DNA of 64,000 nucleotides from an uncultured Candidatus Peribacteria bacterium (GTDB lineage Bacteria; Patescibacteriota; Gracilibacteria; UM-FILTER-43-11), in the NCBI GenBank assembly GCA_964458485.1, contig CAYWJA010000004.1, positions 2,231 to 66,230 of the forward strand, read 5' to 3'. The notes under the pieces are model-generated. The model saw nothing but the letters and a program-made list of their open reading frames with translations, searched no databases and was not told the DNA's origin. Position 1 is the stretch's first letter; each line of letters begins with the position of its first letter. The position numbers and the translations under genes were made by a program. Of this stretch, positions 2,203-63,861 are shown in pieces.

Positions 2203-2311
2203 TAACCAAATAGTTTCCCGCCTTTCGACAAGCTCAAGGCGTTTCCAAATAGTTGCCAAATTGTTTACTATTAATAATTTGGAAACAATCTGGAAACAAT
2301 CTGGAAACAAT
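2203..2311 (+). promoter_or_regulatory. Conserved repeat-built leader, copy A (upstream of cysS)
   Basis: Layout is ccaaatagtttcc / GC hairpin cgcctt-tcgacaagctc-aaggcg / core gtttccaaatagttgccaaattgtttact (2241-2269) / ctggaaacaat x3 ending at the ATG. The same layout occurs at 16566-16688 and 50663-50755. Confidence 0.6.
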
Positions 2312-3738: not shown

Positions 3739-3802
3739 AACTCCACAAATTAATATAATTTTGTGGACTCTAACTCCACAAATTAATATAATTTTGTGGA
3801 CT
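3739..3802. repeat. Two tandem copies of a 31-nt hairpin unit between cysS and the AAA ATPase gene
   Basis: The unit aactccacaaattaatataattttgtggact occurs at 3739-3769 and 3772-3802. Each has the 8-bp stem tccacaaa/tttgtgga, and the second is followed by ctttta. It could be a cysS terminator and/or an operator. Confidence 0.8.
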
Positions 3803-3831
3803 TTTATTAAAAAGTAAGATATAATGTAAAC

Positions 3832-5855: not shown

Positions 5856-5947
5856 TAGGATGTAGGATGTAGGCCTTTAGGATGTAGGAATCTATGAAAT
5901 TCCGCAGTCCATAACCTACAAGCCTACAACCTACAAGCCTACAACCC
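5856..5947. repeat. Opposed word arrays (aggatgt)n ... (cctacaa/cctacaagc)n
   Basis: The left arm taggatgtaggatgtaggcctttaggatgtagga (5856-5889) faces the right arm cctacaagcctacaacctacaagcctacaaccc (5915-5947). The tgtagg and cctaca words are complementary. The same family occurs at 61958-62034. Confidence 0.8.
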
Positions 5948-5956
5948 TAAAAAATT

Positions 5957-6906: not shown

Positions 6907-6935
6907 CTTGAGACTCGCACTTGAGACTTGAGACT
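6907..6935. repeat. Word array cttgagact x3 upstream of gap
   Basis: cttgagact starts at 6907, 6920 and 6927. The same word occurs at 12514-12543, 24621-24652 (reverse complement) and 55181-55232. Confidence 0.85.
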
Positions 6936-6958: not shown

Positions 6959-7963
6959 ATGAAAGTAGCAATAAATGGCTTCGGCCGCATTGGCCGACAA
7001 ATTATGCATAGAATTATGCAAAAAAACAGCGACCTTGAGGTTGTCGCAATCAATGATCTTTCCGATAATAAAATGTTAGCACTCCTGTTTGGACATGACT
7101 CAACATTCGGTAAATATCCAGGCACTGTGGAATTAAAGGGTGAAGATGAAATTGTTATTGATGGAAAGGCTATCAAAATTTACGCTGAACCGGATCCAGA
7201 AAAACTTCCATGGGGCGAACTTGGTGTAGACACTATTTTTGAATGCACCGGAAGATTCCGTACGCACGAAGATGCCAGCAAGCACGTTACAGCTGGTGCA
7301 AAAAGGGTAATTCTCTCTGCTCCTGCAAAGGGCGATAAAGGTGCTGATGGCACCTTTGTAATGGGCGTGAATGAAGGTGATTTCGACCCAGAGAATCACA
7401 AAATCATTTCAAATGCCAGCTGCACAACAAACTGCCTCGCTCCTGTGGCAAAAGCAATTAACGATGCCTTTGGAATAAAGAGGGGAATCATGACAACTAT
7501 TCACGCTGTAACAACAAGTCAAAAAATTCTAGATATGGCATCTAAGGATGCAAGACGTGCAAGAAGCTGCATGCAAAATATGATCCCAACAACAACCGGT
7601 GCTGCAAAAGCTGTTTCCTTAGTTATCCCGGAGCTTAAAGGGAAACTTACCGGAATGGCTGTACGTGTACCAACTCCAACAGTATCACTTGTTGATTTAA
7701 CTGTAGAATTTGAAAAAGATGTCACCACCGATGAAATCCATGATGTTCTGAAAAAACGTGCACAGGAAATTCCAGAAATTATGCAGGTGGAAGAACGCCC
7801 ACTTGTTTCAAAAGACTTCCAAATGGATTCTCATTCCGCATCTGTTGATGCAATGAGTACCATGGTGATGGGCGGAAACTTAGTAAAAATACTAGTATGG
7901 TACGACAATGAATGGGGGTATTCTTGTAGGATGGTTGATTTGGCGGAACACATATCTAAATAA
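6959..7963 (+). CDS. gap: Glyceraldehyde-3-phosphate dehydrogenase, type I (copy 1)
   Basis: 334 aa with NGFGRIGR and the catalytic SNASCTTNCLAP motif. Confidence 0.95.
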   Translation: MKVAINGFGRIGRQIMHRIMQKNSDLEVVAINDLSDNKMLALLFGHDSTFGKYPGTVELKGEDEIVIDGKAIKIYAEPDPEKLPWGELGVDTIFECTGRFRTHEDASKHVTAGAKRVILSAPAKGDKGADGTFVMGVNEGDFDPENHKIISNASCTTNCLAPVAKAINDAFGIKRGIMTTIHAVTTSQKILDMASKDARRARSCMQNMIPTTTGAAKAVSLVIPELKGKLTGMAVRVPTPTVSLVDLTVEFEKDVTTDEIHDVLKKRAQEIPEIMQVEERPLVSKDFQMDSHSASVDAMSTMVMGGNLVKILVWYDNEWGYSCRMVDLAEHISK

Positions 7964-7966
7964 CAA

Positions 7967-8024
7967 CCTAATAGTGACCTGCTACGCGTGACCAGCTCAC
8001 TACGTTCGCGTGACCTAATAGTGA
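7967..8024. repeat. GC-rich insert flanked by the direct repeat cctaatagtga
   Basis: cctaatagtga occurs at 7967-7977 and 8014-8024, bracketing the GC-rich stretch between 7978 and 8013. Positions 7991-8012 match the reverse complement of the cysS internal 22-mer at 18/22. Confidence 0.75.
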
Positions 8025-8101
8025 TTATAATTATGCAATTAAATCACAATAGGTCACGTGAGCTTGAGCTTGTCGAAAGCGAACGGGTAACAATTGGAAT
8101 C

Positions 8102-9569: not shown

Positions 9570-9662
9570 GGAGAGATACCCAAGTGGCTGAAGGGGCGGC
9601 TTTGCTAAAGCTGTAGGGGGATTTTTATCCCCGCGAGGGTTCGAATCCCTCTCTCTCCGCCA
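9570..9662 (+). tRNA. tRNA-Ser (anticodon GCT, reads AGY), CCA encoded
   Basis: Hand-folded. Acceptor ggagaga/tctctcc, D arm ccc-aagtggctgaa-ggg, anticodon stem cggct/agctg with loop ttGCTaa. There is a long variable arm (tagggggatttttatccccgc) and T arm gaggg-ttcgaat-ccctc, then discriminator g and CCA. Confidence 0.9.
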
Positions 9663-9864
9663 CAATTAATTAAGGGTTATATATCTTATTTACCGTAGAT
9701 GAGAACCCACCGATACAATTTTAATATAAATTTAATACTGGGTGTTCGCCGCGAAAAAGAAGCAAAGTCCCGACAAAGTCGGGACGTAAGCGACTATTTG
9801 AGCGCTCGACCTCGGACGGTATGCCTGAGCGTTAGCGAATGGTATACCGGAGAATGTAAGAATA

Positions 9865-9881
9865 TCCCTCTCTCTCCGCCA
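9865..9881 (+). repeat. Duplicate of the tRNA-Ser 3' end (att-like direct repeat 2)
   Basis: tccctctctctccgcca at 9865-9881 is identical (17/17) to 9646-9662 inside the tRNA. Confidence 0.9.
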
Positions 9882-10872: not shown

Positions 10873-11466
10873 TCAATCCTCATCCTTCCAATTCTCTGGA
10901 TCTAATTCCATATACTCAATATATTCCCAGTCTAAATCATTGAGAAGGCAGACCCTATTTGTTGGCAATGTGCCGGCTTCTCCGACTATCCTTTTTAGTG
11001 CCTTTTTATCTAATCCACTAGGATTAAATCTATGCCTCTTTCCTAATCCGCCTATGTACATTGGTAAGTCCAAAATTAGTTCACGAGGATCAAATCCAAA
11101 TTGTCTTCTTAAAACTTTACGTACCTCAACTTCCTGTCGTGCATTTAGGCGGTCATAAATATCTCCGTCTTTATAATAAGGCAATAAATCTCCAATTGTA
11201 CTATGTGGTAAAGTTTTTTCGCCAAACCCATATATATCACTCAATGGATAATCTCGGGCTCCTGGATTTGCCTTAATTGCTTCTATTAACCGCTCTTTTG
11301 ACATACCCTCAGGTGCCCCAGTGGCCTCATGTGATTTAATTAATGCATTAATCCTATCACGTTGTGCCCTAAGCTTAGCAATATCGCCAATAGGGATATT
11401 TCCTGATTCTGCCTGAGATAAAACTCTGCCTATTTTTACTTCCGCGTTAAGTCTACGTCCACCCAT
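10873..11466 (-). CDS. Hypothetical protein, tandem paralogue 2
   Basis: 197 aa with an ATG start. It carries the matching blocks LIEAIKANPGARDYPLSDIYGFG, IGDLLPYY and EVEVRKVLRRQFGF. Confidence 0.6.
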   Translation of the reverse strand: MGGRRLNAEVKIGRVLSQAESGNIPIGDIAKLRAQRDRINALIKSHEATGAPEGMSKERLIEAIKANPGARDYPLSDIYGFGEKTLPHSTIGDLLPYYKDGDIYDRLNARQEVEVRKVLRRQFGFDPRELILDLPMYIGGLGKRHRFNPSGLDKKALKRIVGEAGTLPTNRVCLLNDLDWEYIEYMELDPENWKDED

Positions 11467-11535
11467 AAAAAATAAAGATTATATAAATAAGGTTACTATT
11501 AAACCAAAGTTCATATAATTTGTCAAGCCTAAAGC

Positions 11536-12531
11536 CTATAAATCAATCTTCAGCCCTTTTTTTATTTTCTTTTTCGATTTATAAACAATCAACTCATCCA
11601 CCAACCCCTGTTTTTTGAGTGATTGATAAAGTGTAGGGCCTGGTTCAACTAAAACTGATCCAATTTTTTGTTTTGCAAGATGGGCAAAAAGTTTTTTCAA
11701 GCTAACTTGTTTTTTGGTTGGGCTACGCCAGATTTTCGATTTTCGACCTTGCCTACCGGCAGGCAGGTTGTCGATTTTCGATTTTTTCATTGTTGTCGCA
11801 ATCAAATAATTCCCATCCTTCAAAACCCTTGCCTCTTTCGGAACTCTCAACTTCGAATCCAAAACAATTCGCAAAGGATCTTTGCCTTTAACTAATCTGA
11901 CATTTAACCTCGGATCATCATCCAAAACCGTATTTATCCCCACCATAATGGCTTGATGATCAGCACGTAGCTGATGAACCTCTTTATCCTGCTTTTTTGT
12001 CGTAAAATAGACAGGCTGACCATTCTCACCCGCCACAAAGCCATCTGCTGACATTGCAATTTTAACTGTTATGTAAGGTCTGTTCTTTGTAACCCGTGTA
12101 TAAAAAAATTTATTGAGCTCCTTGCATTGCCTGGAGCTTCTCCCAGATAAAAATTGAATCTGCAATCGGGGGTCTGCAATCGGGAATCGATTTTGAAATG
12201 GATCCCTTGCATCACAAATAATACGAGTAATCCCAACCTTCTTAATCAAATCCAGACAAGGTGGAGTTTTGCCAAAGTGCCGGCACGGTTCTAATGTTAC
12301 ATAAATAGTCGCTCCTTTCAGATCATCCTTGTTCTTAGCTGATTTAATCGCATTTACCTCCGCATGCGACCCACCAAATTTTTTATGATAACCTTTTCCA
12401 ATCACCTTCTTATTTTTAACAATCACAGCCCCAACCATTGGGTTCGGCGCAACCGCACGACCACCCAATTGTGCTAACTTGAGAGCCTGTAACATGTATT
12501 TTTGATCATTAGACCTTGAGGCTTGAGACAT
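11536..12531 (-). CDS. ribD: Bifunctional riboflavin biosynthesis deaminase/reductase
   Basis: The deaminase motifs HAEVNAI and TLEPCRHFGKTPPC are followed by a reductase domain. The track start at 12558 is a TTG inside a word array, and the ATG at 12531 (MSQASRSNDQKYMLQAL) fits the RibD N-terminus. Confidence 0.9.
   Translation of the reverse strand: MSQASRSNDQKYMLQALKLAQLGGRAVAPNPMVGAVIVKNKKVIGKGYHKKFGGSHAEVNAIKSAKNKDDLKGATIYVTLEPCRHFGKTPPCLDLIKKVGITRIICDARDPFQNRFPIADPRLQIQFLSGRSSRQCKELNKFFYTRVTKNRPYITVKIAMSADGFVAGENGQPVYFTTKKQDKEVHQLRADHQAIMVGINTVLDDDPRLNVRLVKGKDPLRIVLDSKLRVPKEARVLKDGNYLIATTMKKSKIDNLPAGRQGRKSKIWRSPTKKQVSLKKLFAHLAKQKIGSVLVEPGPTLYQSLKKQGLVDELIVYKSKKKIKKGLKIDL
11731..11787. 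repeat. Word-array / GC-hairpin / word-array element inside the ribD frame
   Basis: The plus strand reads gattttcgattttcga-ccttgcctaccggcaggcagg-ttgtcgattttcgatttt. On the gene strand this translates as KSKIDNLPAGRQGRKSKI. Confidence 0.8.
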
Positions 12532-12757
12532 GCACTTGAGACTAAATAATATTGACAATCACAATTTTTACATGATATACAGATATTCTCAATGTGAATT
12601 ATGGAAATTAAATGAACTATTTTGTATTTTAATGAATATTTTGTATGAAACATCGCAGTATTGAACGCAAACGTCTCCGATCATCCGGACACGATTATTC
12701 ATCGGACGGATTACACGCCATCACAATCACTGAAACATGTGAAGGAATTTTTAGGTA

Positions 12758-12820
12758 AATGCGAAATGCCAAATGATCCCGATGAAATCGGGACGAAATC
12801 AGAAATGCGAAATGCGAAAT
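12758..12820. repeat. Word array / hairpin / word array composite between ribD and comM
   Basis: aaatgcgaaatgccaaatga, then the hairpin tcccgatgaaatcggga (12777-12793), then cgaaatcagaaatgcgaaatgcgaaat. Positions 12794-12815 are identical to 59387-59408. Confidence 0.85.
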
Positions 12821-12848
12821 AAATATTTTATCCCATAAAATTTATAAC

Positions 12849-14621: not shown

Positions 14622-16559
14622 ATGAATAAATTAGATGAGTGGTTAAACAAAAAAACCCGTCCGGGCAGGCACGGGCAGACACAACCACAAACAAAAAAAA
14701 CAAATACAGCAACGACATCTGGAAATGCTGTAGGAACAAGCCATAGCGCATCCCAAAAAGATCATGGAGCCAAGCCTACACAAACAGACAACACAAAGCC
14801 TGTAAGACATCAACACAAACCTGCACACCAGCATCACAAGAAACCATATAAACATGGTAAAAAACCACATGGGCACAGTAAAAAGTCTACCGATAAAATG
14901 CGCATAATCCCACTAGGTGGGCTTGAGGAGGTTGGTAAAAACATCACAGCCATAGAATATGGCAATGATATCATTTTGATAGATTGCGGCATGTCTTTTG
15001 CGGGGCCCGAAATGCTCGGAGTAGATTATATTGTGCCCGATGTTACATATCTGCAAAAAAGAAAGAATAAGGTCAGAGGTATCATTTTCACACATGGGCA
15101 TCTGGATCACATCGGTGCAGCACAATACGTGGTACCAAAGCTTGGTAACCCACCATTGTATGCAACCAAATTAACAGCCGGCCTTCTTAAAAACAGATTG
15201 CGAGAATTCGCACTAGACAAAAGTGTGCATTTAAATGAATATAATGAAACCACAAAATTAAAATTAGGTGCATTTGAGATAGAATTCTTTCGTGTTAACC
15301 ATAGTATTCCAGATGGAATGGGAGTATTTATAAAATCCCCTGCGGGTACAATCGTACACAGTGGAGATTTTAAATTTGACCATGCACCAGCTATTGATAA
15401 ACCGGCTGACATGCAGCGCATAGCGGAACTCGGAAAAAGAGGGATTGATGTTTTAATGATCGATAGCACTAATGCAATTAAGCCTGGCTTCTGCAAATCG
15501 GAAAAAGAAATAGCAGGTAACATAGAAGATGTTGTCGCAAAAGCCAAGGGACGCCTGATTATTGCATCCTTCTCTTCATTAATCGGACGTATTAATCAAA
15601 TTTGTAATATTGCAGCGCAGTACAACCGAAAAGTATTTTTATCCGGTCGTTCAATGGTAGATAATATGAAATTAGCCGAAAGGCTCGACTATACGACTTA
15701 CCCCAAAGGGACTGTGCGCAAAATTAACCCTTCTATAAACAAATTACCACCAAGCCAGACAATTATCCTTACAACCGGTGCACAAGGAGAAACTCTAAGT
15801 GCATTAACCAGAATGGGAATTGGTGAACATGCACAAATTAAAATACGTGAGGGTGACACTGTTGTAATCTCCGCAAGTCCGATACCCGGCAATGAACTAG
15901 CTATTGTAAGTGTAATAAACAATCTTTATTCACTAGGGGCCAGAGTGATTACAAACGGTGAAATGGATGTTCATGTATCCGGCCACGCACATGCAGAAGA
16001 GGTAAAATTAATGCGGTCTTTAATAAAACCCCAATGCTATGTTCCGATTCATGGAGAGCTATTTATGCGCATGGGGCATGCAGAAATGATCAGAAAAATA
16101 GCCGATCCAGATATGTCTATAACAATGTTGGAAAACAATGGGGACATTCTAGAAATAGGTAGACAAGGTATACGAAAGTCCAAACAAAAAATACCTGCAA
16201 ATGATATTCTTGTGGACGGACTTGGCTTTGGTGATATTGGCTCTAAAGTTATACAAGACAGAAAAATAATGTCTACCGATGGAATCCTTTTAATACTTTT
16301 TCATGCATATGAAAAAACCAAGCGCTTAATCGGAGAACCTGATATAATTTCGCGCGGGTTTGTATATGTAAAAGAATCACAAACTATTGCAGCTGAGACA
16401 AAGCAGGTTGCAAAAAAAGCCTTTGAACAGATAGTTGCAGAGAATCGGGAAATCGGCATGAAAGATTTAAAACAAGAAATAGCTCGGCGTGTTAACCAAT
16501 TTATACGCAAGCGACTAGGCAGAGAGCCTATGATTATACCGATACTTATGTATATTTAA
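14622..16559 (+). CDS. rnj: Ribonuclease J with a ~92-aa basic His/Lys/Pro/Thr-rich N-terminal extension
   Basis: The canonical RNase J core starts at MRIIPLGGLEEVGKN (ATG at 14898) with HGHLDHIG and beta-CASP regions. The extension frame is open from 14622, and the word array abuts that ATG. A start at 14898 cannot be excluded. Confidence 0.9.
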   Translation: MNKLDEWLNKKTRPGRHGQTQPQTKKTNTATTSGNAVGTSHSASQKDHGAKPTQTDNTKPVRHQHKPAHQHHKKPYKHGKKPHGHSKKSTDKMRIIPLGGLEEVGKNITAIEYGNDIILIDCGMSFAGPEMLGVDYIVPDVTYLQKRKNKVRGIIFTHGHLDHIGAAQYVVPKLGNPPLYATKLTAGLLKNRLREFALDKSVHLNEYNETTKLKLGAFEIEFFRVNHSIPDGMGVFIKSPAGTIVHSGDFKFDHAPAIDKPADMQRIAELGKRGIDVLMIDSTNAIKPGFCKSEKEIAGNIEDVVAKAKGRLIIASFSSLIGRINQICNIAAQYNRKVFLSGRSMVDNMKLAERLDYTTYPKGTVRKINPSINKLPPSQTIILTTGAQGETLSALTRMGIGEHAQIKIREGDTVVISASPIPGNELAIVSVINNLYSLGARVITNGEMDVHVSGHAHAEEVKLMRSLIKPQCYVPIHGELFMRMGHAEMIRKIADPDMSITMLENNGDILEIGRQGIRKSKQKIPANDILVDGLGFGDIGSKVIQDRKIMSTDGILLILFHAYEKTKRLIGEPDIISRGFVYVKESQTIAAETKQVAKKAFEQIVAENREIGMKDLKQEIARRVNQFIRKRLGREPMIIPILMYI

Positions 16560-16565
16560 CATATC

Positions 16566-16688
16566 GTTACCAAATAGTTTCCTGGCCTTCGGCTCACTAA
16601 GTTCGCTCAGGCCGTTTCCAAATAGTTACCAAATGGTTTACTGTCTGGAAACAATATGGAAACAATATGGAAACAATATGGAAACAAT
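16566..16688 (+). promoter_or_regulatory. Conserved repeat-built leader, copy B (upstream of the prepilin peptidase gene)
   Basis: gttaccaaatagtttcc, a GC hairpin, the core gtttccaaatagttaccaaatggtttact (16614-16642), then atggaaacaat x4 (16645-16688) ending at the ATG. Confidence 0.6.
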
Positions 16689-17450
16689 ATGAAATTAGCC
16701 CACATAATAATCCCCCTCATCGGCCTTGGTTTCGGCAGTTTCGCCAGTGTCATAATCCATCGCATACACTCAGAAGAGGGTGGAATTTTATTTGGCAGGT
16801 CGAAATGCCCAAAGTGCAAAAAAACACTAGGGGCAATTGATCTTATCCCAATCGCCGGTTATATGATAAATAAATTCAAATGCAGATTCTGCAAAGACTC
16901 TATTTCGATTAGATACCCAATTTTGGAAATAGTGATGGGGTTAGGATTTTTATCAACATCATTGCTTGTCGGATTTAATAACTACTGGCTACTCGCCTAC
17001 TATTTATTAATTACATTTATCTTTGTACTTCTCTCTTTTTATGACATATTCTTCCAGGAAATCCCCGATCGAATCTCACTACCAACCATTATATTAACAG
17101 GTTTAGTTGGTTTTATCGCACATTTGCACAGCCCGAAACATTTAGTTATTGGATTTATAATCCCTGTAGTCTTTTTCGGCGCCCTTTTTCTTGGTTCACG
17201 TGGCCGTTGGCTCGGCGGTGGAGATGTACGAATTGGTGCCATAATGGGCTTCATACTCGGCTGGCCCAATATAATCATTGGATTATTTTTAGCCTACCTG
17301 TTCGGATCAATTTATAGCATTATTGGCCTGCTCAGCGGCAAACTTACCCGAAAAACTCCGATCCCATTTGGACCCTTTCTGTTCATTGGAACTTACATCG
17401 CACTATTTTGGGGAAAAAATATTGTAGGTTGGTATTTGGGGATGATATAA
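16689..17450 (+). CDS. pilD: Prepilin (type IV) leader peptidase, A24 family
   Basis: An N-terminal CxxC...CxxC (CPKCKKTL...CRFCKDSI), multiple TM helices and a GGGDVRIGA motif are present. The ATG at 16689 is preferred over the repeat-encoded ATG at 16656. Confidence 0.85.
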   Translation: MKLAHIIIPLIGLGFGSFASVIIHRIHSEEGGILFGRSKCPKCKKTLGAIDLIPIAGYMINKFKCRFCKDSISIRYPILEIVMGLGFLSTSLLVGFNNYWLLAYYLLITFIFVLLSFYDIFFQEIPDRISLPTIILTGLVGFIAHLHSPKHLVIGFIIPVVFFGALFLGSRGRWLGGGDVRIGAIMGFILGWPNIIIGLFLAYLFGSIYSIIGLLSGKLTRKTPIPFGPFLFIGTYIALFWGKNIVGWYLGMI

Positions 17451-25792: not shown

Positions 25793-26485
25793 TGTCTATA
25801 TTAAGTTAGACAAAAAACAAAATGAGTTTTTTGAAAGATTTTTTATAACATATATATTTTATTGTTTTTTTTCTCTGAATGCAACCACTTTTTTTCTTTT
25901 ATTGTTTATGGGTTTTGAACATTGTTTTATTAATCTAATATATTTTTATTTTAATATATATTTAACTAGTAGAAGTATTAGGGTATTGATAAAAAAGGAA
26001 TAAGTTGGTTAGTATTGTTTGTAAGTGTTTTTGGCTTTATTCGGCTCTGAATCCTGTTTTTGAATATTAATTTTATTCATATAAATAGTGTATTGTTTGT
26101 CTAAGATAAGCCAGATTAGTCACATTTTTAAATTTATTTTAATATATCAAAGCAAGACGCACTGTCGAATTAATAAATAATGATGAATAATAAATAAATA
26201 ATAAATGAAGCTTTGTCCAACATTAAGCCAAATAAGCCGGATAAAAAAATTAGACAACAAAATAGACAAAAATGTGTATAAAATGTGTATAACTTGTGGA
26301 TAAGATGTTAACAAAAAAATAAAAACCGCATTAGTATAACAATACTAAAAAAGCGCTTAAATAAAACATAATTACTTATACATGTGTATAACCAATATAA
26401 CTTTTTATAAACATATACACATAGTTATGAACAGTGACAGATTTAAAATTGTATATGTTGAAAAACAGACAAAACCCAGGCGGTT
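25793..26485. other. Candidate replication origin (AT-rich region with a DnaA-box cluster) upstream of dnaN
   Basis: This is a 693-nt non-coding, very AT-rich spacer, the longest in the window. It holds a perfect DnaA box and several 1-mismatch boxes, plus long A/T runs at 25800-26000 and 26170-26210. Confidence 0.55.
26273..26303. promoter_or_regulatory. Three DnaA-box-like 9-mers in 11-nt register
   Basis: tgtgtataa sits at 26273-26281 and 26284-26292. tgtggataa at 26295-26303 is the exact reverse complement of TTATCCACA. Another tgtgtataa sits at 26383-26391. Confidence 0.7.
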
Positions 26486-38068: not shown

Positions 38069-38130
38069 GCTAATTCGTAATTCGTCTCTCGCCCGCCCGG
38101 ATGACCGGGTCGGACGGGTAATTCGTAATT
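38069..38130. repeat. Word array / GC hairpin / word array composite downstream of lysS
   Basis: gctaattcgtaattcgt, then ctctcgcccgcccggatgaccgggtcggacggg, then taattcgtaatt. The direct repeat taattcgtaatt flanks the GC insert. Confidence 0.85.
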
Positions 38131-38135
38131 AAAAA

Positions 38136-40286
38136 TTATAGCCCAATTTCGTCAGATATTTCTTTCATTGCTTCAAGAGCTATTTCAAAGAATTCACCAA
38201 GCTCCAATCCACATTTCTCAACTTCGCGGATAACATCACGATTTACCTTGGCGGCAAAAGACTTGTCTTTAAATTTCTTTTTAATAGATTTGACCTTAGC
38301 ACCTTCAAGTTTTTTGTCCGGGCGCATTAGGGCATATGCGAATATTAACCCCGTAACAGTTTCGCCTGCAGCAAGTGCATGTTGAAATTTGGTAGTACGT
38401 TCTTTGTCTTTATATTCAGGAATTTCATCCATTCCATATCCGTGTGATGCGATAACCTCAATGAGTTCATCCGAAACACCTGCATTTTTTAAAATTTCGA
38501 CAGATTTTACACAATGATTTTCAACATCTTCACATGTTTCCTCCCAATCAATGTCATGCAAAAGTCCAGCAATACCCCAAACTTCCTCATCTTCACCAAG
38601 TCGTTTTGCAAGAGCGCGCATTACAACTTCTGATTCGCGGCAGTGATTACGATTCATTGGATCTTTGATGTGTTTATCAAACAATTCTTTTGCCTGTTCA
38701 TAAGTTATGCCGGCGGTTATGTTTTCGTTGTTGTTTTCGGGACGCAGGTCTGCGCCCCCTACAGGATGGTCCGATACCTTCCCACCCTTCGGTCTCATCA
38801 ACGGAAACATAACAACGTCACGCAAATTATCCTGTTGGGTTAAAAGAGTTACAAGGCGGTCGATACCCATCCCCCATCCACTCATTGGTGGCATACCATG
38901 TTCCATAGCTTCCAAATATTCTTCATTCATACTCATTGCTTCTTCATCCCCGCCAGCCTTTGCCTTTGCCTGCCCCTCCAGCCTTTTCCTTTGGTCTGCC
39001 GGGTCAACAAGTTCGCTATATGCATTTATAACTTCCCATGTGTTTACTAAGAGCTGGAATGTATCGCATACTTTGTCACTTTCATCATTTCTTCTCGCAA
39101 GCGGTTTTGTGTCTGCTGGATGATGGATTACAAAACACGGCTGAATCAATTTTGGTCTACTTACCTTTTTGTATAAATGATCAACCAAATTTCCATAACC
39201 CATATTTTCAGCATCTTCTATTTCTATTTCTTTTTCTTTTATAGCTTTTAAAAGATCTTTTTCGTTGTCATATTCCAGAATATCGATTCCGCAGTCTTCT
39301 TTTATCATTTCCCGATAATCCCTGCGTGGCCATGGAGTTTTAAAATCAATTTCAGCCTCTTTGCCTTCCTGATCTTTAATCATAACTTTCGTTGTGCCCA
39401 TTACCTCTTTCATCAAATATTCAAACATTTCTTCGGTAAACTTCATATTATCTTCAAAGTTCCAATATGCAGCATAGTGCTCGATCATTGTAAACTCTTG
39501 TAAGTGGCTTGGGTCCATGCCTTCGTTACGGAAACATCTTGCAACTTCAAAAGTTTTTTCAAAACCACCCACAACCGCTGTTTTTTGCCACAACTCCCCT
39601 GCTGCTATGCGTAAATAAACATCAATATCCAATGCATTATGATGTGTCGAGAAAGGTTTAGCCGCAGCACCGGATGAAATATTTTCAAGAACAGGCGTTT
39701 CAATTTCAGTAAACCCCTTACTCCAATAAAATTCACGTAATTTACGAACGACTTTTGATCGGAATTCAAATCGCGCACGCGCTTCTTTGCTCATCACCAA
39801 ATCAAGATGCCTTTGGCGATATTTTGTTTCTTGGTCTTGAAGCCCGTGCCATTTTTCTGGCAATGGACGGATCGCTTTACCCAAAAAAACCAAATCACTA
39901 ACCAGCAAAGTTGTTTCACCATGTTTGGTTTTAAAAAGCTCACCAGTTACACCAATAAAATCCCCAATGTCCAAAAGTTTCATGAGTTTTTCCTGTTTTT
40001 CATCCAAAACACCTTTCATCAGGCAGATTTGGATTTTACCTTTATCATCTTGAAGATGTGCGAAATTAAGTTTCCCAAAATCACGAAAAGACATCATTCG
40101 TCCACATAACGTGACATCATTTTTATTGTCTTTTTGAATTTCTTCAACGTCGCGTAATTTTTCTTGGCCAAGCTTCAATGCCTCATCAGAATAATGCGTA
40201 CGTTCAAACCGTGCTGGGTAGGGGTTGATACCAAGTGCACGAATTTTTTCGATCTTATCAAATCTTTCTTTTGATATTCTATCCAT
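38136..40286 (-). CDS. lysS: Lysyl-tRNA synthetase (class II) fused to a C-terminal HD-domain hydrolase
   Basis: Residues 1 to ~500 are a complete LysRS ending ...RDVVMFPLMRP. A ~20-aa linker encoded by a palindromic repeat follows, then ~195 aa with HD-superfamily motifs (LLHDIDWE, ASHGYG). Confidence 0.9.
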   Translation of the reverse strand: MDRISKERFDKIEKIRALGINPYPARFERTHYSDEALKLGQEKLRDVEEIQKDNKNDVTLCGRMMSFRDFGKLNFAHLQDDKGKIQICLMKGVLDEKQEKLMKLLDIGDFIGVTGELFKTKHGETTLLVSDLVFLGKAIRPLPEKWHGLQDQETKYRQRHLDLVMSKEARARFEFRSKVVRKLREFYWSKGFTEIETPVLENISSGAAAKPFSTHHNALDIDVYLRIAAGELWQKTAVVGGFEKTFEVARCFRNEGMDPSHLQEFTMIEHYAAYWNFEDNMKFTEEMFEYLMKEVMGTTKVMIKDQEGKEAEIDFKTPWPRRDYREMIKEDCGIDILEYDNEKDLLKAIKEKEIEIEDAENMGYGNLVDHLYKKVSRPKLIQPCFVIHHPADTKPLARRNDESDKVCDTFQLLVNTWEVINAYSELVDPADQRKRLEGQAKAKAGGDEEAMSMNEEYLEAMEHGMPPMSGWGMGIDRLVTLLTQQDNLRDVVMFPLMRPKGGKVSDHPVGGADLRPENNNENITAGITYEQAKELFDKHIKDPMNRNHCRESEVVMRALAKRLGEDEEVWGIAGLLHDIDWEETCEDVENHCVKSVEILKNAGVSDELIEVIASHGYGMDEIPEYKDKERTTKFQHALAAGETVTGLIFAYALMRPDKKLEGAKVKSIKKKFKDKSFAAKVNRDVIREVEKCGLELGEFFEIALEAMKEISDEIGL
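38739..38762. repeat. 28-nt palindrome family, copy 3, inside the lysS-HD linker
   Basis: The reverse complement of gggacgcaggtctgcgccccctac matches copy 1 (34722-34749) with one mismatch over 24 nt. It encodes VGGADLRP. Confidence 0.85.
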
Positions 40287-42822: not shown

Positions 42823-42893
42823 GGGTTGTGGCTAGGGTTGTGGATAGGGTTGTGGCTACCATTCTAGCCACTATTCTAGCCACCACTCGACCA
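42823..42893. repeat. Opposed word arrays gggttgtggcta x3 / attctagccac x2
   Basis: The 12-mers at 42823, 42835 and 42847 are followed by ccattctagccac tattctagccac cactcgaccact. gtggctag and ctagccac are complementary. Confidence 0.85.
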
Positions 42894-43904
42894 CTATTCG
42901 TTAATTGATTTAGATAAAAGCTCCATCATATCCACAAGCCTACAAGCATACCCCCACTCATTATCGTACCAGGTAATTAGCTTAACATAGCGGTCATCCA
43001 AAACCTTAGTTAATTGTGTGTCTATAATGCTGGAATGGGGATTGGTCTTGAAGTCAATTGATACCAATGGATCATCGCAGTAGTCAATAATAGGTTCATA
43101 GTATTCTTCTCTGCATTTTTTCCTAAAAAAATCATTAAGCTCATCTTCGCTTACACTATTTTCCAGATGAAGTACAATATCGCAAACTGAACTAGTCGCT
43201 ATTGGTACTCTGTAAGCCATACCATCTAACTTTCCCTTTAGTGCAGGAATTATTTTTGCAGTAGCCTTAATAGCACCAGTAGTTGTTGGGATTACAGACT
43301 GAACAGCACTGCGGCATCGACGCAAATCTCTGCCAGAATTATCTAGAAGATTCTGAGAATGTGTAAATGAATGAATGGAAGAAACAGAGGCATTTAAAAT
43401 ACCCCATTTTTCATGCACTAGTTTAATAGGCGGAGCAATACAGTTGGTCGTACAACTTGCATTAGAAATTACTTTATATTCTGATTTTAAATCTTTTTCA
43501 TTTACCCCAATAACGAAAGTTGGTGTGTCATCTTTCATTGGTGCAGAAACGAGAACTTTTTTTACACCACCTTCCAGATGTCGGCTGGCTATGTCGTAAG
43601 TTTTTGCTTTACCGGTACACTCCAAGACAATATCCACATCATAATCGCTCCATGGAATTTCACGTGCGTCTTTGATTGCAAAACAATGTACATTTTTACC
43701 ATCCACTAGAATCCCTTCACCATTTTTCTTAACTTCATTTTTAATATTGCCATGCAGAGAGTCATATTTTAAAAGATGTGCCCGCATTTTTCTGTCTTCT
43801 GACCTAGCATTAATTGCAACCACTTCCATATCTGGACGGTTTAGGAGTATGCGATGGACAATACGTCCGATTCGGCCGTAGCCGTTTAGGCCTACTTTGA
43901 TCAT
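42894..43904 (-). CDS. gap: Glyceraldehyde-3-phosphate dehydrogenase, type I (copy 2)
   Basis: 336 aa with NGYGRIGR and SNASCTTNCIAP. It is clearly diverged from the copy at 6959-7963. Confidence 0.9.
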   Translation of the reverse strand: MIKVGLNGYGRIGRIVHRILLNRPDMEVVAINARSEDRKMRAHLLKYDSLHGNIKNEVKKNGEGILVDGKNVHCFAIKDAREIPWSDYDVDIVLECTGKAKTYDIASRHLEGGVKKVLVSAPMKDDTPTFVIGVNEKDLKSEYKVISNASCTTNCIAPPIKLVHEKWGILNASVSSIHSFTHSQNLLDNSGRDLRRCRSAVQSVIPTTTGAIKATAKIIPALKGKLDGMAYRVPIATSSVCDIVLHLENSVSEDELNDFFRKKCREEYYEPIIDYCDDPLVSIDFKTNPHSSIIDTQLTKVLDDRYVKLITWYDNEWGYACRLVDMMELLSKSINE

Positions 43905-43934: not shown

Positions 43935-44012
43935 AGTGCTGTCGTCCTTTCGTCCTTTAGTGCTTTCGTCCTAAAATAGGAGAGCACGACAGGACGATAG
44001 CACGATAGCACT
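43935..44012. repeat. Imperfect long hairpin made of 8-nt words (tcgtcctt / agtgct versus aggacga / agcac)
   Basis: The left arm agtgctgtcgtcctttcgtcctttagtgctttcgtcct faces the right arm aggagagcacgacaggacgatagcacgatagcact across the loop aaaat. Confidence 0.8.
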
Positions 44013-47158: not shown

Positions 47159-47235
47159 GTCATCCTGAACTTGATGAAATGAAGGGTGTTATACCCTTTG
47201 TCATCCTGCCCCGATTCTATCGGGATCAGAATGAC
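47159..47235. repeat. Nested hairpin element (gtcatcctg repeats)
   Basis: gtcatcctg occurs twice (47159 and 47200). Positions 47200-47235, gtcatcctgccccgattctatcgggatcagaatgac, form a two-tier hairpin (gtcatcctg/cagaatgac outer, cccgat/atcggg inner). Confidence 0.75.
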
Positions 47236-47391
47236 AAACAGAGGATTACTCCTTCTCTATATACAAAATGATAAATGCAGAAATGTAAGATGAAGAATCG
47301 AATCTGAAATCTGAAATATGTAAAAAGTTTTTGACTTTTCACAGTGGGTATGCTATTATTATCTGAATTATTTTTTAGATTTTTTAAAAAT

Positions 47392-47719: not shown

Positions 47720-48682
47720 CTATCTAAACTGATCAGAGCTTGTTTCTCGAATTTTATCTACCTTAAGATTCTCCACCTGCTCCCTAATCCCATCCTCCAA
47801 TCTAACAGTAGGTTTGTAATCAAGTACTTCAGATATTTTTGTTATATCCGCATACTGGCCTTGTACATAATTTTCTTTTACAGGATTTTCAATATGTTCG
47901 GACTCAATGTCTTTGCCAAATGCATCATTTAGCGCATCAACAATCTCTTTAACAGCAGTTCCTTTACCAGTGCCAATATTAAATACATCTGCCCCCAGTT
48001 TTTTATCAGATTCAATAGCAAGCGTAAGTCCTTGTACTACATCGCGCACATTAGTAAAATCGCGAGTTTGTGTTCCGTCACCATAGATCACAGGTGCAAG
48101 GTTACGTGCCATATCCCAGCAGAATTGTGAAATCAAATTGGCATAAATGCCCTTAGCCTCTTCGTTGGGTCCATAAACACTCATAAAACGGAATCCGATT
48201 ATATCCATTTCCGGATATACTTTGTTATAACATTGCGCACAATATTCGTAAGTTCGCTTTGTTACAGAATAATGGTTTATGGGCGTTACATGCTGATCCT
48301 CCAAAAGCGGTAACGGATTATTTCCATAAAGCGACGAAGTTGATGCATAAACTACCTTTTTAGTCCCATTTTTCCGTGCCCAATCAAGCACTGTCACGAA
48401 CGATTGGATAGAGTTAACATATCCATCTACAAATCCATCATCCATGAACATCGGCGCTGATGATGTGCCTGCAAGATGTACTACGAAGTCAACTTTTCCG
48501 ACCTTGTCTAAATCGTCTTTGCTGCATGCATCCCCCTTTATAAATTGGATGTCTGCGTCTAAATTGTTTTTATCACCTAAAAATAAATTATCTAAAGCAA
48601 TAACTTTAAATTTATTTTTATTAATGTTGCAGAAGTTGGAGCCTATAAACCCGGCACCACCTGTTATTAAAACTGTTTGCAT
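47720..48682 (-). CDS. NAD-dependent sugar-nucleotide epimerase/dehydratase (SDR family)
   Basis: TGGAGFIGS Rossmann motif and the YxxxK catalytic pair (YSVTK). 320 aa. Confidence 0.9.
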   Translation of the reverse strand: MQTVLITGGAGFIGSNFCNINKNKFKVIALDNLFLGDKNNLDADIQFIKGDACSKDDLDKVGKVDFVVHLAGTSSAPMFMDDGFVDGYVNSIQSFVTVLDWARKNGTKKVVYASTSSLYGNNPLPLLEDQHVTPINHYSVTKRTYEYCAQCYNKVYPEMDIIGFRFMSVYGPNEEAKGIYANLISQFCWDMARNLAPVIYGDGTQTRDFTNVRDVVQGLTLAIESDKKLGADVFNIGTGKGTAVKEIVDALNDAFGKDIESEHIENPVKENYVQGQYADITKISEVLDYKPTVRLEDGIREQVENLKVDKIRETSSDQFR

Positions 48683-48709
48683 TTTTTATTGTTTAATTAT
48701 GTATATTGG

Positions 48710-48737
48710 GTAGGGGACGCAGATCTGCGTCCCCTAC
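48710..48737. repeat. 28-nt palindrome family, copy 2 (upstream of the epimerase gene)
   Basis: gtaggggacgcagatctgcgtcccctac is a perfect 28-nt palindrome. It begins 27 nt beyond the epimerase ATG (minus strand). Confidence 0.9.
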
Positions 48738-48832
48738 ATTATTACATAACAACAACATGAACCAAAACAATAAAAAACTTTGACATTCAAAATTATTCTT
48801 GTATTCTAGCGCGGCCCTTTAATTAAAAATAT

Positions 48833-49595: not shown

Positions 49596-50660
49596 ATGTT
49601 TTTCAAAAAAAAGAAACCACGTCGGCTTTATTACCCTGCTAAATCCAAATGGTATACACGTCCGCGTAGACGTAAACCTTCCGTTAGGCGTTCAAATAAA
49701 TTATTAAAAAATAGTCTTGGAGGTATTAATAAGGTTCTTAAAAGATTGCCCTACCTCATAGCAGTAGCCGTTGGCCTTTTCCTTTTGGTAATTTCATTAA
49801 TATTTTCTTCATATTTTGCAATCAAAAATATTCAAGTAGTAAGAGAAAACCTTACAATAAATAGTGCAGCTATTGAGAATAAATTAAATAAATATATTGG
49901 AAAAAACATTGTTTTTTTCCCAAGAAGTAAGATTTTTACAACTATTCAAAAAGAATTTCCGGAATTTTCTTCAGTTAAAGTTGGCAAAACTCTCCCGTCT
50001 ACAATAAAAATTCAATTAAAAAGTCATCCTATAGTAGCTAACCTCCGGGCATATCATATTCCTGTTGTGGAAGAAGTTACAAAAGAACAAACAGAGTTTA
50101 ATAAGGCGGTAACAGATTTATTGAATCCACAGGCAACAAAAGAACCCATCCAAAAGGAAAACAAACTTAATACAAAACAGCCTAGTGGTATTTTTGATTT
50201 AACAAAAACAAAGGAGGACGCGAAACCAAAATCAATAGAGCAAAAATCCCTTTTAAATAGTATTGGGCAAGCCATTTTTGATCGCGAAGAAAGCTTGGAG
50301 TATATAACAATTATCATTCGCAATCTACAGATGCCAGTTAAAGATCGAGAGCAAGTGATAAAAAAAAGTCATATGAATTATGTGCTTGATGCGATCAAAT
50401 ATTTTAAGAATACTATGAAATTAGAGGTAGTTGGGGCAGAATATTTAGGGATAGCACGGGAAGTTCACTTGAAAACCAAAAAGAATTTGGTAGTCTGGAT
50501 TAGTATTGAACATGATTATAAAATACAAATAGATAAATTACATACAATATATGAAGCGGCAGAGCTCAATAAAGAAAATTTGAGTTATATTGATTTGCGC
50601 ATTCGTAATAAATTAATTTATTGCCCTCGTGGATTGCGTTGCTCTGTCCTATCCAAGTAG
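49596..50660 (+). CDS. FtsQ/DivIB-like cell-division protein (POTRA-containing)
   Basis: A basic N-terminus and single TM helix are followed by FAIKNIQVVRENLTINSAAIENKLNKYIGKNIVFF...LPSTIKIQLKSH, resembling the FtsQ POTRA domain. The gene neighbours cell-wall genes. Confidence 0.6.
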   Translation: MFFKKKKPRRLYYPAKSKWYTRPRRRKPSVRRSNKLLKNSLGGINKVLKRLPYLIAVAVGLFLLVISLIFSSYFAIKNIQVVRENLTINSAAIENKLNKYIGKNIVFFPRSKIFTTIQKEFPEFSSVKVGKTLPSTIKIQLKSHPIVANLRAYHIPVVEEVTKEQTEFNKAVTDLLNPQATKEPIQKENKLNTKQPSGIFDLTKTKEDAKPKSIEQKSLLNSIGQAIFDREESLEYITIIIRNLQMPVKDREQVIKKSHMNYVLDAIKYFKNTMKLEVVGAEYLGIAREVHLKTKKNLVVWISIEHDYKIQIDKLHTIYEAAELNKENLSYIDLRIRNKLIYCPRGLRCSVLSK

Positions 50661-50662
50661 TT

Positions 50663-50755
50663 ACCAGCTCGCTCCGCTCGCGTTTCCAAATAGTTGCCAA
50701 GTTGCTTACTTGCCACAACAATCTGGTAACAATCTGGTAACAATCTGGTAACAAT
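50663..50755 (+). promoter_or_regulatory. Conserved repeat-built leader, copy C (upstream of the DD-carboxypeptidase gene)
   Basis: accagctcgctccgctcgcgtt matches the reverse complement of the cysS 22-mer at 19/22. The core gtttccaaatagttgccaagttgcttact (50682-50710) follows, then ctggtaacaat x3 (50723-50755) ending at the ATG. Confidence 0.6.
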
Positions 50756-55180: not shown

Positions 55181-55232
55181 GCTTGAGACTTGAGACCCGC
55201 GCCCTTGGCGGGGCAGGCATGCACTTGAGACT
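55181..55232. repeat. cttgagact word array interrupted by a GC-rich insert
   Basis: gcttgagacttgagac, then ccgcgcccttggcggggcaggcatg, then cacttgagact. Confidence 0.85.
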
Positions 55233-59310: not shown

Positions 59311-59382
59311 GTCATGTACCATTTTGCAATTAGCAATTACTAATTAATTAGTTAAATGCCAAATGAGTGAATGCCAATTGTG

Positions 59383-59408
59383 AATGCGAAATCAGAAATG
59401 CGAAATGC
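59383..59408. repeat. Right arm of the perfect 26-nt inverted repeat
   Basis: aatgcgaaatcagaaatgcgaaatgc. It overlaps the first base of the ilvD stop codon, and 22 nt recur at 12794-12815. Confidence 0.9.
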
Positions 59409-61953: not shown

Positions 61954-61957
61954 AATT

Positions 61958-62034
61958 AGGATGTAGGATTGTAGGATGTAGGATTGTAGGAATTTATAGT
62001 AGGCCTACATCCTACATGCCTACTACCTACAACC
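61958..62034. repeat. Opposed word arrays (aggatgt/aggattgt)n ... (cctaca)n
   Basis: The left arm aggatgtaggattgtaggatgtaggattgtagga faces the right arm aggcctacatcctacatgcctactacctacaacc. It belongs to the same family as 5856-5947. Confidence 0.85.
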
Positions 62035-63861
62035 TTAGTTTTTATTATACAAAATATTGTACCCTCGCTCAAATGCCTCAATAGAAGCCGCAATTACATC
62101 GGGAGAGGTGGCAGTTGCAATAACTTTATTGTCCCTTTCATCTTTTAAGCTCATAGAAACCTCTACAGTTGCATCTGTACCACGTTGATCGATTTTTACA
62201 TCATAATCAGTAAGCCAGTATTTCATCAATTTTTCCCTTACGATGGTTTTCCGAACAGCTTTCATAATTGCATCAACAGGCCCTACTCCGGCTGCACTGG
62301 TTTCACATATTCCATTGTCTTTTATTTTTACCTTTACGCTGGCACAAGCTTGATCATTTTTAGATGTACTAACACTAAAATCCATCACTTTTATAAGTTT
62401 TTTAGAATCAGGCACAGTTTTTAAAATATCTTCAATAACATGCTGAAGATCCGACTTTACCATTTCCTTACCTTTCTTAAAGAATTGTCCAACTTCTTTA
62501 TATAAAGCATTCGCATATCTTGCAGATAAATTCAATTTGAACTTCTTTTTAACTACATCAGATAGCTGCCTTTTTGTTGGCTGCTTATTCCATAAAATTT
62601 CAATTTTGTCTTTTTCCAAAGTAGATTGAATGTTATAAAGCTTCATCCTTAAATATCTATCCACCTCATCAACATTCGGTTCAATAGAAGGAGGGGATGG
62701 CAGGGTTTTGAGTACGGTTAGCGGATCCTTTAGGCCATTTCCCGTAGCTATGCAAACCACAACATCATCTTTTTTTATTTTTTTAGATTTCACAAGTTTT
62801 TTTAGCCCGGCAAGTGCAAGAGCCGCAGAAGGTTCAACAAAAATAGATTCTTTCTTGGCCAATTCTTTTTCAGCCTCCAAAGTTTCTCCGTCACTCACTT
62901 CGATAGCCATACCTTTAGTTTTATAAATTGCATTAAGCACCTTTAATCCATCAAGCGGATAACTTACAGCAACAGCAGAAGATAGGGTTTTAGGTTTTTC
63001 AATAGATTTTAATTTGCGGGTTTTCTTTTTAAAAGATTCCACTACAACATTAGCCCCCTTTGGTTGTACGCCCACAATTTTAGGCATTTTATCTATAAAA
63101 CCAAGTTCATAAAATTCTCTTATTCCCTTATATATTGCGGTCAAATTAGTACCACATCCAATAGGAGCAATAACAAAATCCGGTGCCTTCCAAAAAAGCT
63201 GTTCCACAATTTCATAACCCTGAGATTTTTGACCTTCGCCCCTAAAAACATAGTCTCCAGCCAAATAAAATCCATGTTTTTTGGCGATTTTTTCCGCAAG
63301 CTTCGCACATTCACTATAAGTAGCACGAACCTGAATTACGCGCGCACCATAAGCAAGGGTCTGAGAAAGTTTACCAAGTGGTGTCCCTTCCGGGACTATA
63401 ATGTAGGCTGGTATTTCAGCGCGTGATGAATAAGCTGCAATAGAGGCTGCCATATTACCTGTTGATGCAACCACTATTGCCTTTGCGCCCATTTCCATAG
63501 CCTTAGTTACCTCTACCATACTTCCTCTGTCTTTAAATCCTCCAGTTGGATTAGATGTTTCATCTTTAAAATATAATTTTTTTAAACCAAGCTCTTTAGC
63601 TATTTTTTTACTCTTCTTTAATGCGGTACCTCCTTCATCTAAGCTAACGAGCTTGTTTAAATTAGCTATTGGGTAAAAATCCAAATATTTTGTAGCCGCA
63701 ATTGGAGCATTTTTTAAAGCATAAAAATTAAGATGACTTTTTATATAGCCATAGTCATATTCAGCATCCAGCGGGCCTTCACACTTAAGGCAATGGCTGG
63801 ATGTCTTTTTTTCATCCCAATATTTCCCGCAGGAAACGCATTTTAATTTGTAGAATTTCAT
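62035..63861 (-). CDS. Threonine-synthase-like PLP enzyme with N-terminal zinc ribbon, fused to a C-terminal LeuA/CimA-type regulatory (LeuA_dimer) domain
   Basis: CVSCG...CLKCEG ribbon and the PLP-lysine motif NPTGGFKDRG (ThrC-like, fold type II). The last ~130 aa match the allosteric domain of isopropylmalate/citramalate synthases: AAGVGPVDAIMKAV...LTDYDVKIDQRGTDATVEVSMSL...SPDVIAASIEAFERGYN. Confidence 0.85.
   Translation of the reverse strand: MKFYKLKCVSCGKYWDEKKTSSHCLKCEGPLDAEYDYGYIKSHLNFYALKNAPIAATKYLDFYPIANLNKLVSLDEGGTALKKSKKIAKELGLKKLYFKDETSNPTGGFKDRGSMVEVTKAMEMGAKAIVVASTGNMAASIAAYSSRAEIPAYIIVPEGTPLGKLSQTLAYGARVIQVRATYSECAKLAEKIAKKHGFYLAGDYVFRGEGQKSQGYEIVEQLFWKAPDFVIAPIGCGTNLTAIYKGIREFYELGFIDKMPKIVGVQPKGANVVVESFKKKTRKLKSIEKPKTLSSAVAVSYPLDGLKVLNAIYKTKGMAIEVSDGETLEAEKELAKKESIFVEPSAALALAGLKKLVKSKKIKKDDVVVCIATGNGLKDPLTVLKTLPSPPSIEPNVDEVDRYLRMKLYNIQSTLEKDKIEILWNKQPTKRQLSDVVKKKFKLNLSARYANALYKEVGQFFKKGKEMVKSDLQHVIEDILKTVPDSKKLIKVMDFSVSTSKNDQACASVKVKIKDNGICETSAAGVGPVDAIMKAVRKTIVREKLMKYWLTDYDVKIDQRGTDATVEVSMSLKDERDNKVIATATSPDVIAASIEAFERGYNILYNKN

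Follow-up and report, generated by a model that had tools for sequence, protein, structure and literature searches.

The lysS gene, on the minus strand of the window (the whole 64,000-nt stretch that was analysed), is followed by a GC-rich hairpin, H1, set between copies of the AT-rich word TAATTCG, and the longer repeat TAATTCGTAATT at 38071-38082 and 38119-38130 encloses it. The host is an ultra-small CPR bacterium of the Peregrinibacteria/Gracilibacteria type. In species-representative genomes, the best lysS relative lies in a Candidatus Gracilibacteria MAG (74%), followed by Peregrinibacteria-type MAGs at about 60%, and a large protein collection contained no LysRS homologues between 100% and 75% identity. 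Genetic code 25 was rejected; under Table 11 the ORFs are long and intact, coding density is 90% and TGA serves only rarely as a stop. Nine contigs, assembled separately from three JGI and six ENA samples, agree at 99.96-100% identity over 37-41 kb including the primary site, and the site is therefore not an assembly artefact. That metagenomic assembly or chimerism produced the wider pattern we regard as close to impossible: the metagenomic origin of the sequence is the sole point in favour, and it is set against the agreement of nine assemblies and the reading frames left open by the in-frame copies described below. There was no polymorphism among the nine same-population contigs, so recent movement is not seen in the sampled population.

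Several further features mark the window. A 693-nt AT-rich spacer (GC 0.23) upstream of dnaN, at 25793-26485, is probably the replication origin; it holds four DnaA-box-like 9-mers (26273-26303 and 26383), of which three fall within a tandem array of 11-nt units. The last 16 nt of tRNA-Ser(GCT) at 9570-9662, CCCTCTCTCTCCGCCA, are exactly repeated at 9866-9881 with about 200 nt containing GC-rich hairpins between, and from its sequence this 9570-9881 repeat resembles an att-type scar left by an element that had integrated. A 135-aa 23S-rRNA-intervening-sequence/Avd-like protein is encoded at 31414-31821; a homologue lies near yifB in a related locus (L131), and some members of the family accompany diversity-generating retroelements. 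There are two GAPDH paralogues (6959-7963 and 42894-43904), the second in a PFK-GAPDH-FBA-LemA cluster syntenic with two relatives, L122 and L125.

The spacers are dominated by short tandem words. Tandem Repeats Finder gave 107 rows in the window, mostly intergenic and many with a 7-12 nt period. Inverted arrays of a single word fill many spacers, including TAGGATG/CATCCTA at 61957-62035 and 5856-5949 and others at 42823-42899 and 43942-44011, and whole spacers folded as RNA are far more stable than shuffles (z -2.7 to -8), with inverted arrays of this kind at z -3 to -8. In this bacterium spacers consist of tandem AT-rich words of 7-12 nt, often inverted to give long hairpins. Relatives at about 72-75% LysRS identity have dense arrays as well, with GC hairpins at the apex of word hairpins or nested in them, and their words are different. 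Tandems of an 11-mer (GGAAACAATMT or GGTAACAATCT) reach start codons at 2276-2311, 16646-16691 and 50717-50755; the array at 16646-16691 contains several ATGs spaced 11 nt apart in different frames, and translation starts could become length-variable there. Between cysS and an AAA ATPase/DUF4143 gene, a 33-nt unit is repeated 2.6 times (3739-3825), each unit carrying the palindrome CTCCACAAATTAATATAATTTTGTGGAC and a promoter-like TGGACT-17-TATAAT.

The sequence-only reading had described seven or more loci sharing one layout, an AT-rich word, a GC-rich hairpin and the word again, and all seven cited loci were verified. We scanned the window for such sandwiches, defined as an exact direct repeat of at least 9 nt (GC <=0.5) around 14-60 nt with GC >=0.55 and a fold of -6 kcal/mol or lower, and found 8 loci, whereas shuffled sequence yielded on average 0.21 (dinucleotide shuffling) or 0.08 (block shuffling). 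The match at 14645 is new, beyond the loci listed before. Another, at 895, was rejected as an element; it is a conserved coding feature also present in the orthologue of a relative (L133). The features of the window are:

38071-38084: left word array, TAATTCG x2, directly 3' of the lysS stop codon (38136-38138, minus strand)
38092-38118: hairpin of family H1, CCCGCCCGGATGACCGGGTCGGACGGG, the primary finding; DNA fold -10.5 kcal/mol, z -1.96
38119-38130: right word array, TAATTCG x1.7, a near-palindromic word whose pairing with the left array extends the stem
11731-11787, minus strand: in-frame unit of ribD, AAAATCG x2, hairpin H2, AAAATCG x2; encodes KSKIDNLPAGRQGRKSKI
11747-11763: H2 core CCTGCCGGTAGGCAAGG, 17 nt
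55182-55232: CTTGAGA x2, a 28-nt GC insert (55196-55223) and CTTGAGA, between the stop of a cupin gene and the ilvC start
12756-12820: AAATGCG-type heptamer array with hairpin TCCCGATGAAATCGGGA (12777-12793) inside, in the divergent ribD/yifB region; z -2.6
7967-8098, plus strand: gap/beta-CASP intergenic module, one long hairpin; RNA fold -56.1 kcal/mol, z -7.95
2206-2311, plus strand: cassette 1, CCAAATAGTT, F2 insert (2216-2241, core CTTTCGACAAGCTCAAG), CCAAATAGTT-like x2, loop, inverted 11-mer array x3.3 up to the cysS ATG
16570-16691, plus strand: cassette 2, flanks as in cassette 1; the insert (16580-16613) differs, and its core GCTCACTAAGTTCGC resembles the 22-mer family
50648-50755, plus strand: cassette 3, CCAAGTAGTTACC, a 22-mer family copy (50663-50684), TTTCCAAATAGTTGCC, 11-mer array x3.5 ahead of an ATG
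3341-3414, plus strand: 22-mer TCACGCGAGCAAAGCGAGCTGG x3.4 in frame in cysS, its three frames read in turn, in a hypervariable linker
14645-14699, plus strand: AAACAAAAAAA x2 around CCCGTCCGGGCAGGCACGGG..., an in-frame part of RNase J, within its disordered N-terminal extension
48710-48737: family H3, 28-nt perfect palindrome GTAGGGGACGCAGATCTGCGTCCCCTAC starting with GTAG; DNA fold -14.8 kcal/mol, z -8
34722-34749: H3 copy 2, upstream of acs, in a repeat of about 100 nt common to 48650-48810
38738-38759, minus strand: H3 copy 3 (19/22), in frame, in the hypervariable linker of LysRS-HD (PVGGADLRPEN)

Among the enclosing repeats, GATTTTCGATTTT occurs twice within ribD (11731 and 11773), CTTGAGAC at 55182 and 55224, CCTAATAGTGA at 7967 and 8014, and CCAAATAGTT in pairs at 2206/2245 and 16570/16618. 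The gap module runs in the order CCTAATAGTGA, 1.4 units of the 22-mer family (7985-8013), CCTAATAGTGA, loop, inverted word and a second GC segment, the last containing F2 in reverse (8063-8079). Cassettes 1-3 are copies of one cassette (CCAAATAGTT, insert, CCAAATAGTT x2, loop, inverted 11-mer array, ATG) and have three different inserts at the same position. The words around the GC inserts are units of tandem arrays, and the flanks are mostly arrays of at least two units rather than single duplicated words. They had been called locus-specific, which is right in that they differ among many loci and wrong for CTTGAGA, AAATGCG, TAGGATG, AGCACT and CCAAATAGTT, each of which appears at two or three loci. 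Likewise, the term GC-rich hairpin suits about half of the inserts: those at 38092, 11747, 48713, 12777, 14656 and 2216 give DNA-fold z values of -1.9 to -8, while members of the 22-mer family fold no better than shuffles (z -0.75 to +0.76). This non-hairpin family may have a separate origin or mechanism.

That the inserts fall into families was borne out both within the window and between genomes. The 22-mer family comprises the 3.4 tandem copies in cysS, the copies at 7985-8013 and 50663-50684 and part of 16592-16606; of the matches reported to the reverse complement of the cysS 22-mer, 7992-8013 has the 18/22 claimed, and 50664-50685 has 18/22 instead of 19/22. F2 is an exact 17-mer at 2222-2238 that recurs reversed at 8063-8079, the hairpin at 12777-12793 resembles one at 47209-47227, and H3 is present three times. 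Each family has 1-4 copies in the 64-kb window, a low number that weighs against the reading favoured below. Rfam matched nothing in the window other than tRNA.

We compared these families with loci from other genomes (L numbers) that encode RibD and CysRS homologues and had been picked by protein similarity, not by repeats. H1 lies inside ribD of L147 (25/27) and L129 (24/27) between different words, with GGACTAAGGACTA on either side in L147. L127 has an exact copy of the H2 17-mer at another codon position of its ribD, between TTCAAGATTAAAGA repeats, and identity extends over 23 nt in L141, an unrelated AT-rich contig from the viral-contig scan below, where H2 sits inside a TTCTTAC array; it is read as PAGRQG in the window, L127 and L141. 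F2 matches at 16/17 in L129 and L147. Shuffled queries against the same 1.6 Mb of loci gave matches in 0/60 cases for H1, 1/2000 for H2 and 1/60 for F2. The same hairpins thus recur at non-orthologous sites in other genomes, and together with presence and absence at orthologous sites this upholds the earlier view of them as small inserted, dispersed elements.

A scan of viral contigs had no match to H1 or H3, and with H2 gave about 11 chance matches in GC-rich contigs, a single meaningful one (L141) and an uncertain one outside an array (L135). The L141 copy (11411-11899; IMG/VR, classed as viral) is in frame (LLLPAGRQGLIS) in the signal-peptide-like N-terminus of a 163-aa ORF, with TTCTTAC flanks. 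A metagenome scan with the cassette 19-mer returned only chance matches and ORF-free, probably eukaryotic repeats, in a collection that excludes the window's own genome. Contigs of this ORF-free kind (L091, L092, L097, L099, L106, L110, L115 and L117, from Ga0056xxx / Ga0209680) carry GTTTCCAACTAGTT-type words around CCCGGGTTGCCAACCCGGG hairpins, and L091-type repeats resemble the window cassettes only superficially. Finally, a MITE-like palindrome about 180 nt long, whose ends read TTTGTCATTCAGA / TCTGAATGACAAA, is found in L122 (12163-12342, 12760-12960 and 21555-21734) and L125 (12160-12327), with one copy directly after lysS in both. A 47-nt mini version lies at 47197-47243 of the window, its core hairpin resembling 12777-12793.

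The sequence-only reading explained the layout by miniature transposons that duplicate 8-13 nt of target and whose cycles of insertion and excision leave duplications behind and build the arrays. Its attraction is that the same word stands on both sides of each insert and that words differ among many loci. Filled and empty orthologous sites, predicted by that reading, do exist, in three comparisons: two in ribD, where L127 is filled and L131 empty, and L129 filled and L130 empty, and one in cysS, where L133 is filled and the window empty. At ribD site A, the empty locus (L131) reads TTTAAGATTAAAGATTTAGGATTAAAGATT, and the filled one (L127) has a 21-nt hairpin exactly between heptamer pairs one and two. 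At ribD site B, the empty locus (L130) reads ATTCCCAATGACCA x2, and L129 carries a 45-nt nested hairpin within the second unit. In cysS, L133 (protein 85% identical) has a 24-nt GC hairpin, CATGCCCCGACCGAGGCGGGGGGG, between GATAAAG and AAAAAATG, which is absent in the window. The direction of change follows by parsimony: PAGRQG at site A is found in just 1/24 RibD sequences (with the H1 insert there in only two related ones) and KACPDRGG in just 1/18 CysRS sequences, so the inserts are gains. The nearest relatives in these comparisons are at genus level or further away. For the primary locus there was no orthologous empty site, as gene order around lysS has diverged too far in relatives.

It is the content of the empty sites that speaks against duplication. 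A single word copy was expected there, and both ribD empty sites carry both copies; the cysS hairpin of L133 was inserted outside an array and has no direct repeat around it. The flanks therefore pre-exist and insertion makes no duplication. In addition, the flanks are usually arrays whose words are found insert-free elsewhere (CTTGAGA at 6907-6935, AAATGCG at 59337-59407, and TAGGATG), and we found no terminal inverted repeats beyond the hairpin itself, the inserts being single stem-loops or non-palindromic 22-mers. Insertion and excision as the source of array growth found no support either, with insert-free arrays present in the window and in relatives. With all three orthologous comparisons contradicting it, we consider the duplication model very improbable.

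Four copies in the window lie within coding sequence: KSKIDNLPAGRQGRKSKI in ribD, the 22-mer in all three frames in cysS, the H3 copy PVGGADLRPEN in the lysS linker and TRPGRHGQT in the RNase J extension. In protein alignments, all four are located in segments of variable length among relatives. Word arrays can themselves occupy such segments: at RibD alignment columns ~163-181, L128 has AAATTCC x3 and AAATCCC x2 in frame, giving KFQIPNSKLQTNPK, and L130 RibD has a 20-aa insert rich in K/S/Q/I. From these in-frame heptamer arrays, word arrays expand inside genes in three-unit steps. Annotators should take peptides like PAGRQG and ARPDDxVGR in these proteins to be products of repeat elements. 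Genomes as streamlined as those of CPR bacteria, at about 1 Mb, tolerate repeats of a selfish or structural kind, aminoacyl-tRNA synthetase genes included.

An alternative is that the GC stem-loops have an ordinary function as RNA or DNA, for instance as terminators, as hairpins that stabilise mRNA or as sites of processing, and that they were selected in place and do not move. At the 3' end of lysS the words and H1 form an extended stem, with H1 at its apex, followed by GCUUUUU (z -3.8), and in relatives a different palindromic element occupies the same place after lysS. The stability of whole spacers against shuffles points the same way, as does the conservation of spacer architecture: in orthologous L133 spacers the layout (word, insert, word, loop, inverted words) is kept and the words have changed, which argues, from sequence comparison, that overall spacer structure may be under selection. 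At the L133 site orthologous to the spacer downstream of gap, a shorter insert of the same family lies between CCAAATAGACG words, and some copies are therefore old and vertically inherited. Selection in place would not, however, account for 17-27-mers that are identical or nearly so at non-orthologous sites, some of them inside coding sequence, where termination would do harm, when the RibD proteins of the genomes concerned share only 62-67% identity. Matches to canonical terminators show no enrichment (19 with 15.8 expected, and 16 with 15.3 expected) and do not include most of the sites, and the hairpin at 12777 lies in a divergent promoter region. A simple scan of the window for intrinsic terminators flagged 14670-14655 and 11757-11773, both on the opposite strand of the genes containing them, and the word-extended lysS stem is the only one trailed by GCUUUUU. 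We judge immobile functional structures an unlikely explanation of the whole pattern. A structural role and mobility may be compatible, by analogy with REPs.

Copying between arrays by recombination, gene conversion or template switching during replication would dispense with an element-specific enzyme. Arrays are prone to slippage, nested inserts occur (L129 site B), and the heptamer register is kept, with 35, 42 and 35 nt between equivalent words around H2 in three genomes and 42 nt for the insert upstream of ilvC. Against this, copies of one family stand between unrelated words, which leaves no flanking homology to guide conversion, and the same sequences are present in different genomes. 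This route seems to us a little less probable again than immobile structures.

We favour insertion, and searched for an enzyme that could mediate it. As the sequence-only reading had stated, the window has no transposase: no transposase or Y1/RAYT gene was detected by tblastn, by a six-frame search with a RAYT profile, or by Pfam scans of nearly all predicted proteins with NCBIfam on the rest. The mobilising enzyme that it proposed to look for has a candidate in three relatives and none in the window. In these, a single gene for an IS200-like Y1/HUH protein of 211-219 aa, similar to RAYTs, adjoins ribD (L127 558-1193, L129 9185-9829 and L147 6302-6961). It lies between yifB and ribD in L129 and L147, where the window has a 290-nt spacer (12559-12848) that contains no RAYT remnant. 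The L127 and L129 proteins are 59% identical and match the NCBIfam model REP_Tyr_transpos (REP-associated tyrosine transposase) with E values of 1e-20 and 1e-18, at scores just below the curated cut-off; the L127 protein scores 27.7 bits against Pfam Y1_Tnp (cut-off 23). A profile of the two finds the L147 protein at E 7e-123, and the sole PDB match of the latter is E. coli TnpA-REP (4ER8), in an alignment spanning the HUH and tyrosine motifs. The flanks of the three genes are AT-rich and hold none of the window's hairpins. DNA hairpins are the substrate of IS200/IS605- and RAYT-type enzymes, which leave no duplication, and we infer that the RAYT-like enzyme may be tied to the elements.

Together our results make it likely that dispersed elements of about 20-35 nt have been inserted into pre-existing word arrays and in-frame linkers without target-site duplication. 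The GC segments would represent several very small families, the palindromic H1, H2 and H3 and the non-palindromic 22-mer family, which would enter existing arrays and also, in frame, protein linkers that tolerate changes in length. What looks like a duplication would be the array on either side of the insert. Spread could proceed through a single-strand cut- or copy-and-paste reaction of the IS200/IS605 or RAYT type, and arrays might be favoured as sites either as neutral DNA or as DNA that is slippage-prone or single-stranded. Intergenic copies would act as a GC clamp on word hairpins and may influence transcript 3' ends, and the word-built hairpins of the spacers may be a lineage-specific form of transcript punctuation.

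Among known systems, the closest analogues are the SDRs of Nostocaceae, together with REPs. SDR1-8 are reportedly small dispersed repeats nested in heptamers or in other repeats. We know of no enzyme for them, and to our knowledge nobody has explained, since SDRs were described in 2008, how elements of 20-30 nt come to lie precisely within tandem heptamers. Their families are about 21-27 nt long, some form hairpins, they are nested precisely in other repeats including tandem heptamers, and some orthologous sites lack them. The window elements show the same pattern, as families of 21-27 nt that sit within heptamers or other repeats and are missing at orthologous positions. They differ in their CPR host, in the in-frame copies in essential genes and in families common to genomes of different genera. 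Tandem heptamers in the spacers had at first pointed to a Nostocaceae genome with true SDRs. That origin and true membership among the SDRs we reject; the host is a CPR bacterium whose lysS relatives are Gracilibacteria and Peregrinibacteria MAGs, and the likeness is an analogy by description. According to papers citing Elhai et al. 2008 (Genome Res 18:1484), SDRs have not been found outside Nostocaceae.

REPs and REPINs, associated with RAYTs, are GC-rich imperfect palindromes of 20-40 nt that make no target duplication and have occasional intragenic copies (Nunvar 2010; Bertels & Rainey 2011 PMC3116915; Di Nocera 2013 PMC3733652). This description of 20-40-nt palindromes fits H1, H2, H3 and the hairpins at 12777 and 14656, and does not fit the 22-mer family. 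GTAG stands at the start of H3. The reverse strand of H1 and the 14656 hairpin open with CCCGTCCG, a sequence that includes CGTC, although copies are too few for a consensus; H2 has GTAG in its loop only. A single-copy RAYT-like gene at a conserved position in relatives is a further likeness. In contrast, the strong tie of the window elements to tandem word arrays is not a feature of REPs. No RAYT flanked by its own REPs was found in the window, and the RAYT-like genes of relatives are without these hairpins alongside. REP families run to tens to hundreds of copies per genome, mostly extragenic, and the 64 kb analysed here hold 1-4 copies per family. On this footing the window elements are not assigned to REP/RAYT systems. 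There is no clear REPIN doublet, the sole candidate being the module downstream of gap with its two related, inverted and mutually pairing GC segments. A review of GTAG/CGTC repeats names Proteobacteria, Cyanobacteria, Chloroflexi and PVC, and CPR is not among its phyla. In our literature search there was no report of SDR- or REP-like elements, or of RAYT/REPIN systems, in CPR bacteria.

Two other classes share single traits with the window elements. MITEs are also small, non-autonomous repeats in spacers, but the window elements make no duplication and are without separate terminal repeats. Rickettsia palindromic elements (RPEs), which are about 100-150 bp long, resemble them as in-frame palindromic inserts, whereas the window elements measure 21-45 nt and are mostly intergenic. 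RPEs are reported as palindromic repeats in frame in protein genes, tolerated in surface or linker segments (Ogata et al. 2000, via PMC3733652).

A broader interpretation, which we put forward tentatively and hold somewhat less probable than its negation, is that this CPR lineage keeps a REP/SDR-like system of its own. Its families would be conserved across genera and would home to heptamer arrays without duplication, also in frame in lysS, cysS, ribD and the RNase J gene; a vertically inherited RAYT-like enzyme would probably serve them, and with the words they would make up the modular long hairpins of nearly every spacer. If true, the unexplained association between SDRs and heptamers, known only from Nostocaceae, would gain a second case that is independent of the first. 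A second, unrelated lineage with that association allows comparison, and it offers both a RAYT-like candidate enzyme and clean pairs of filled and empty sites.
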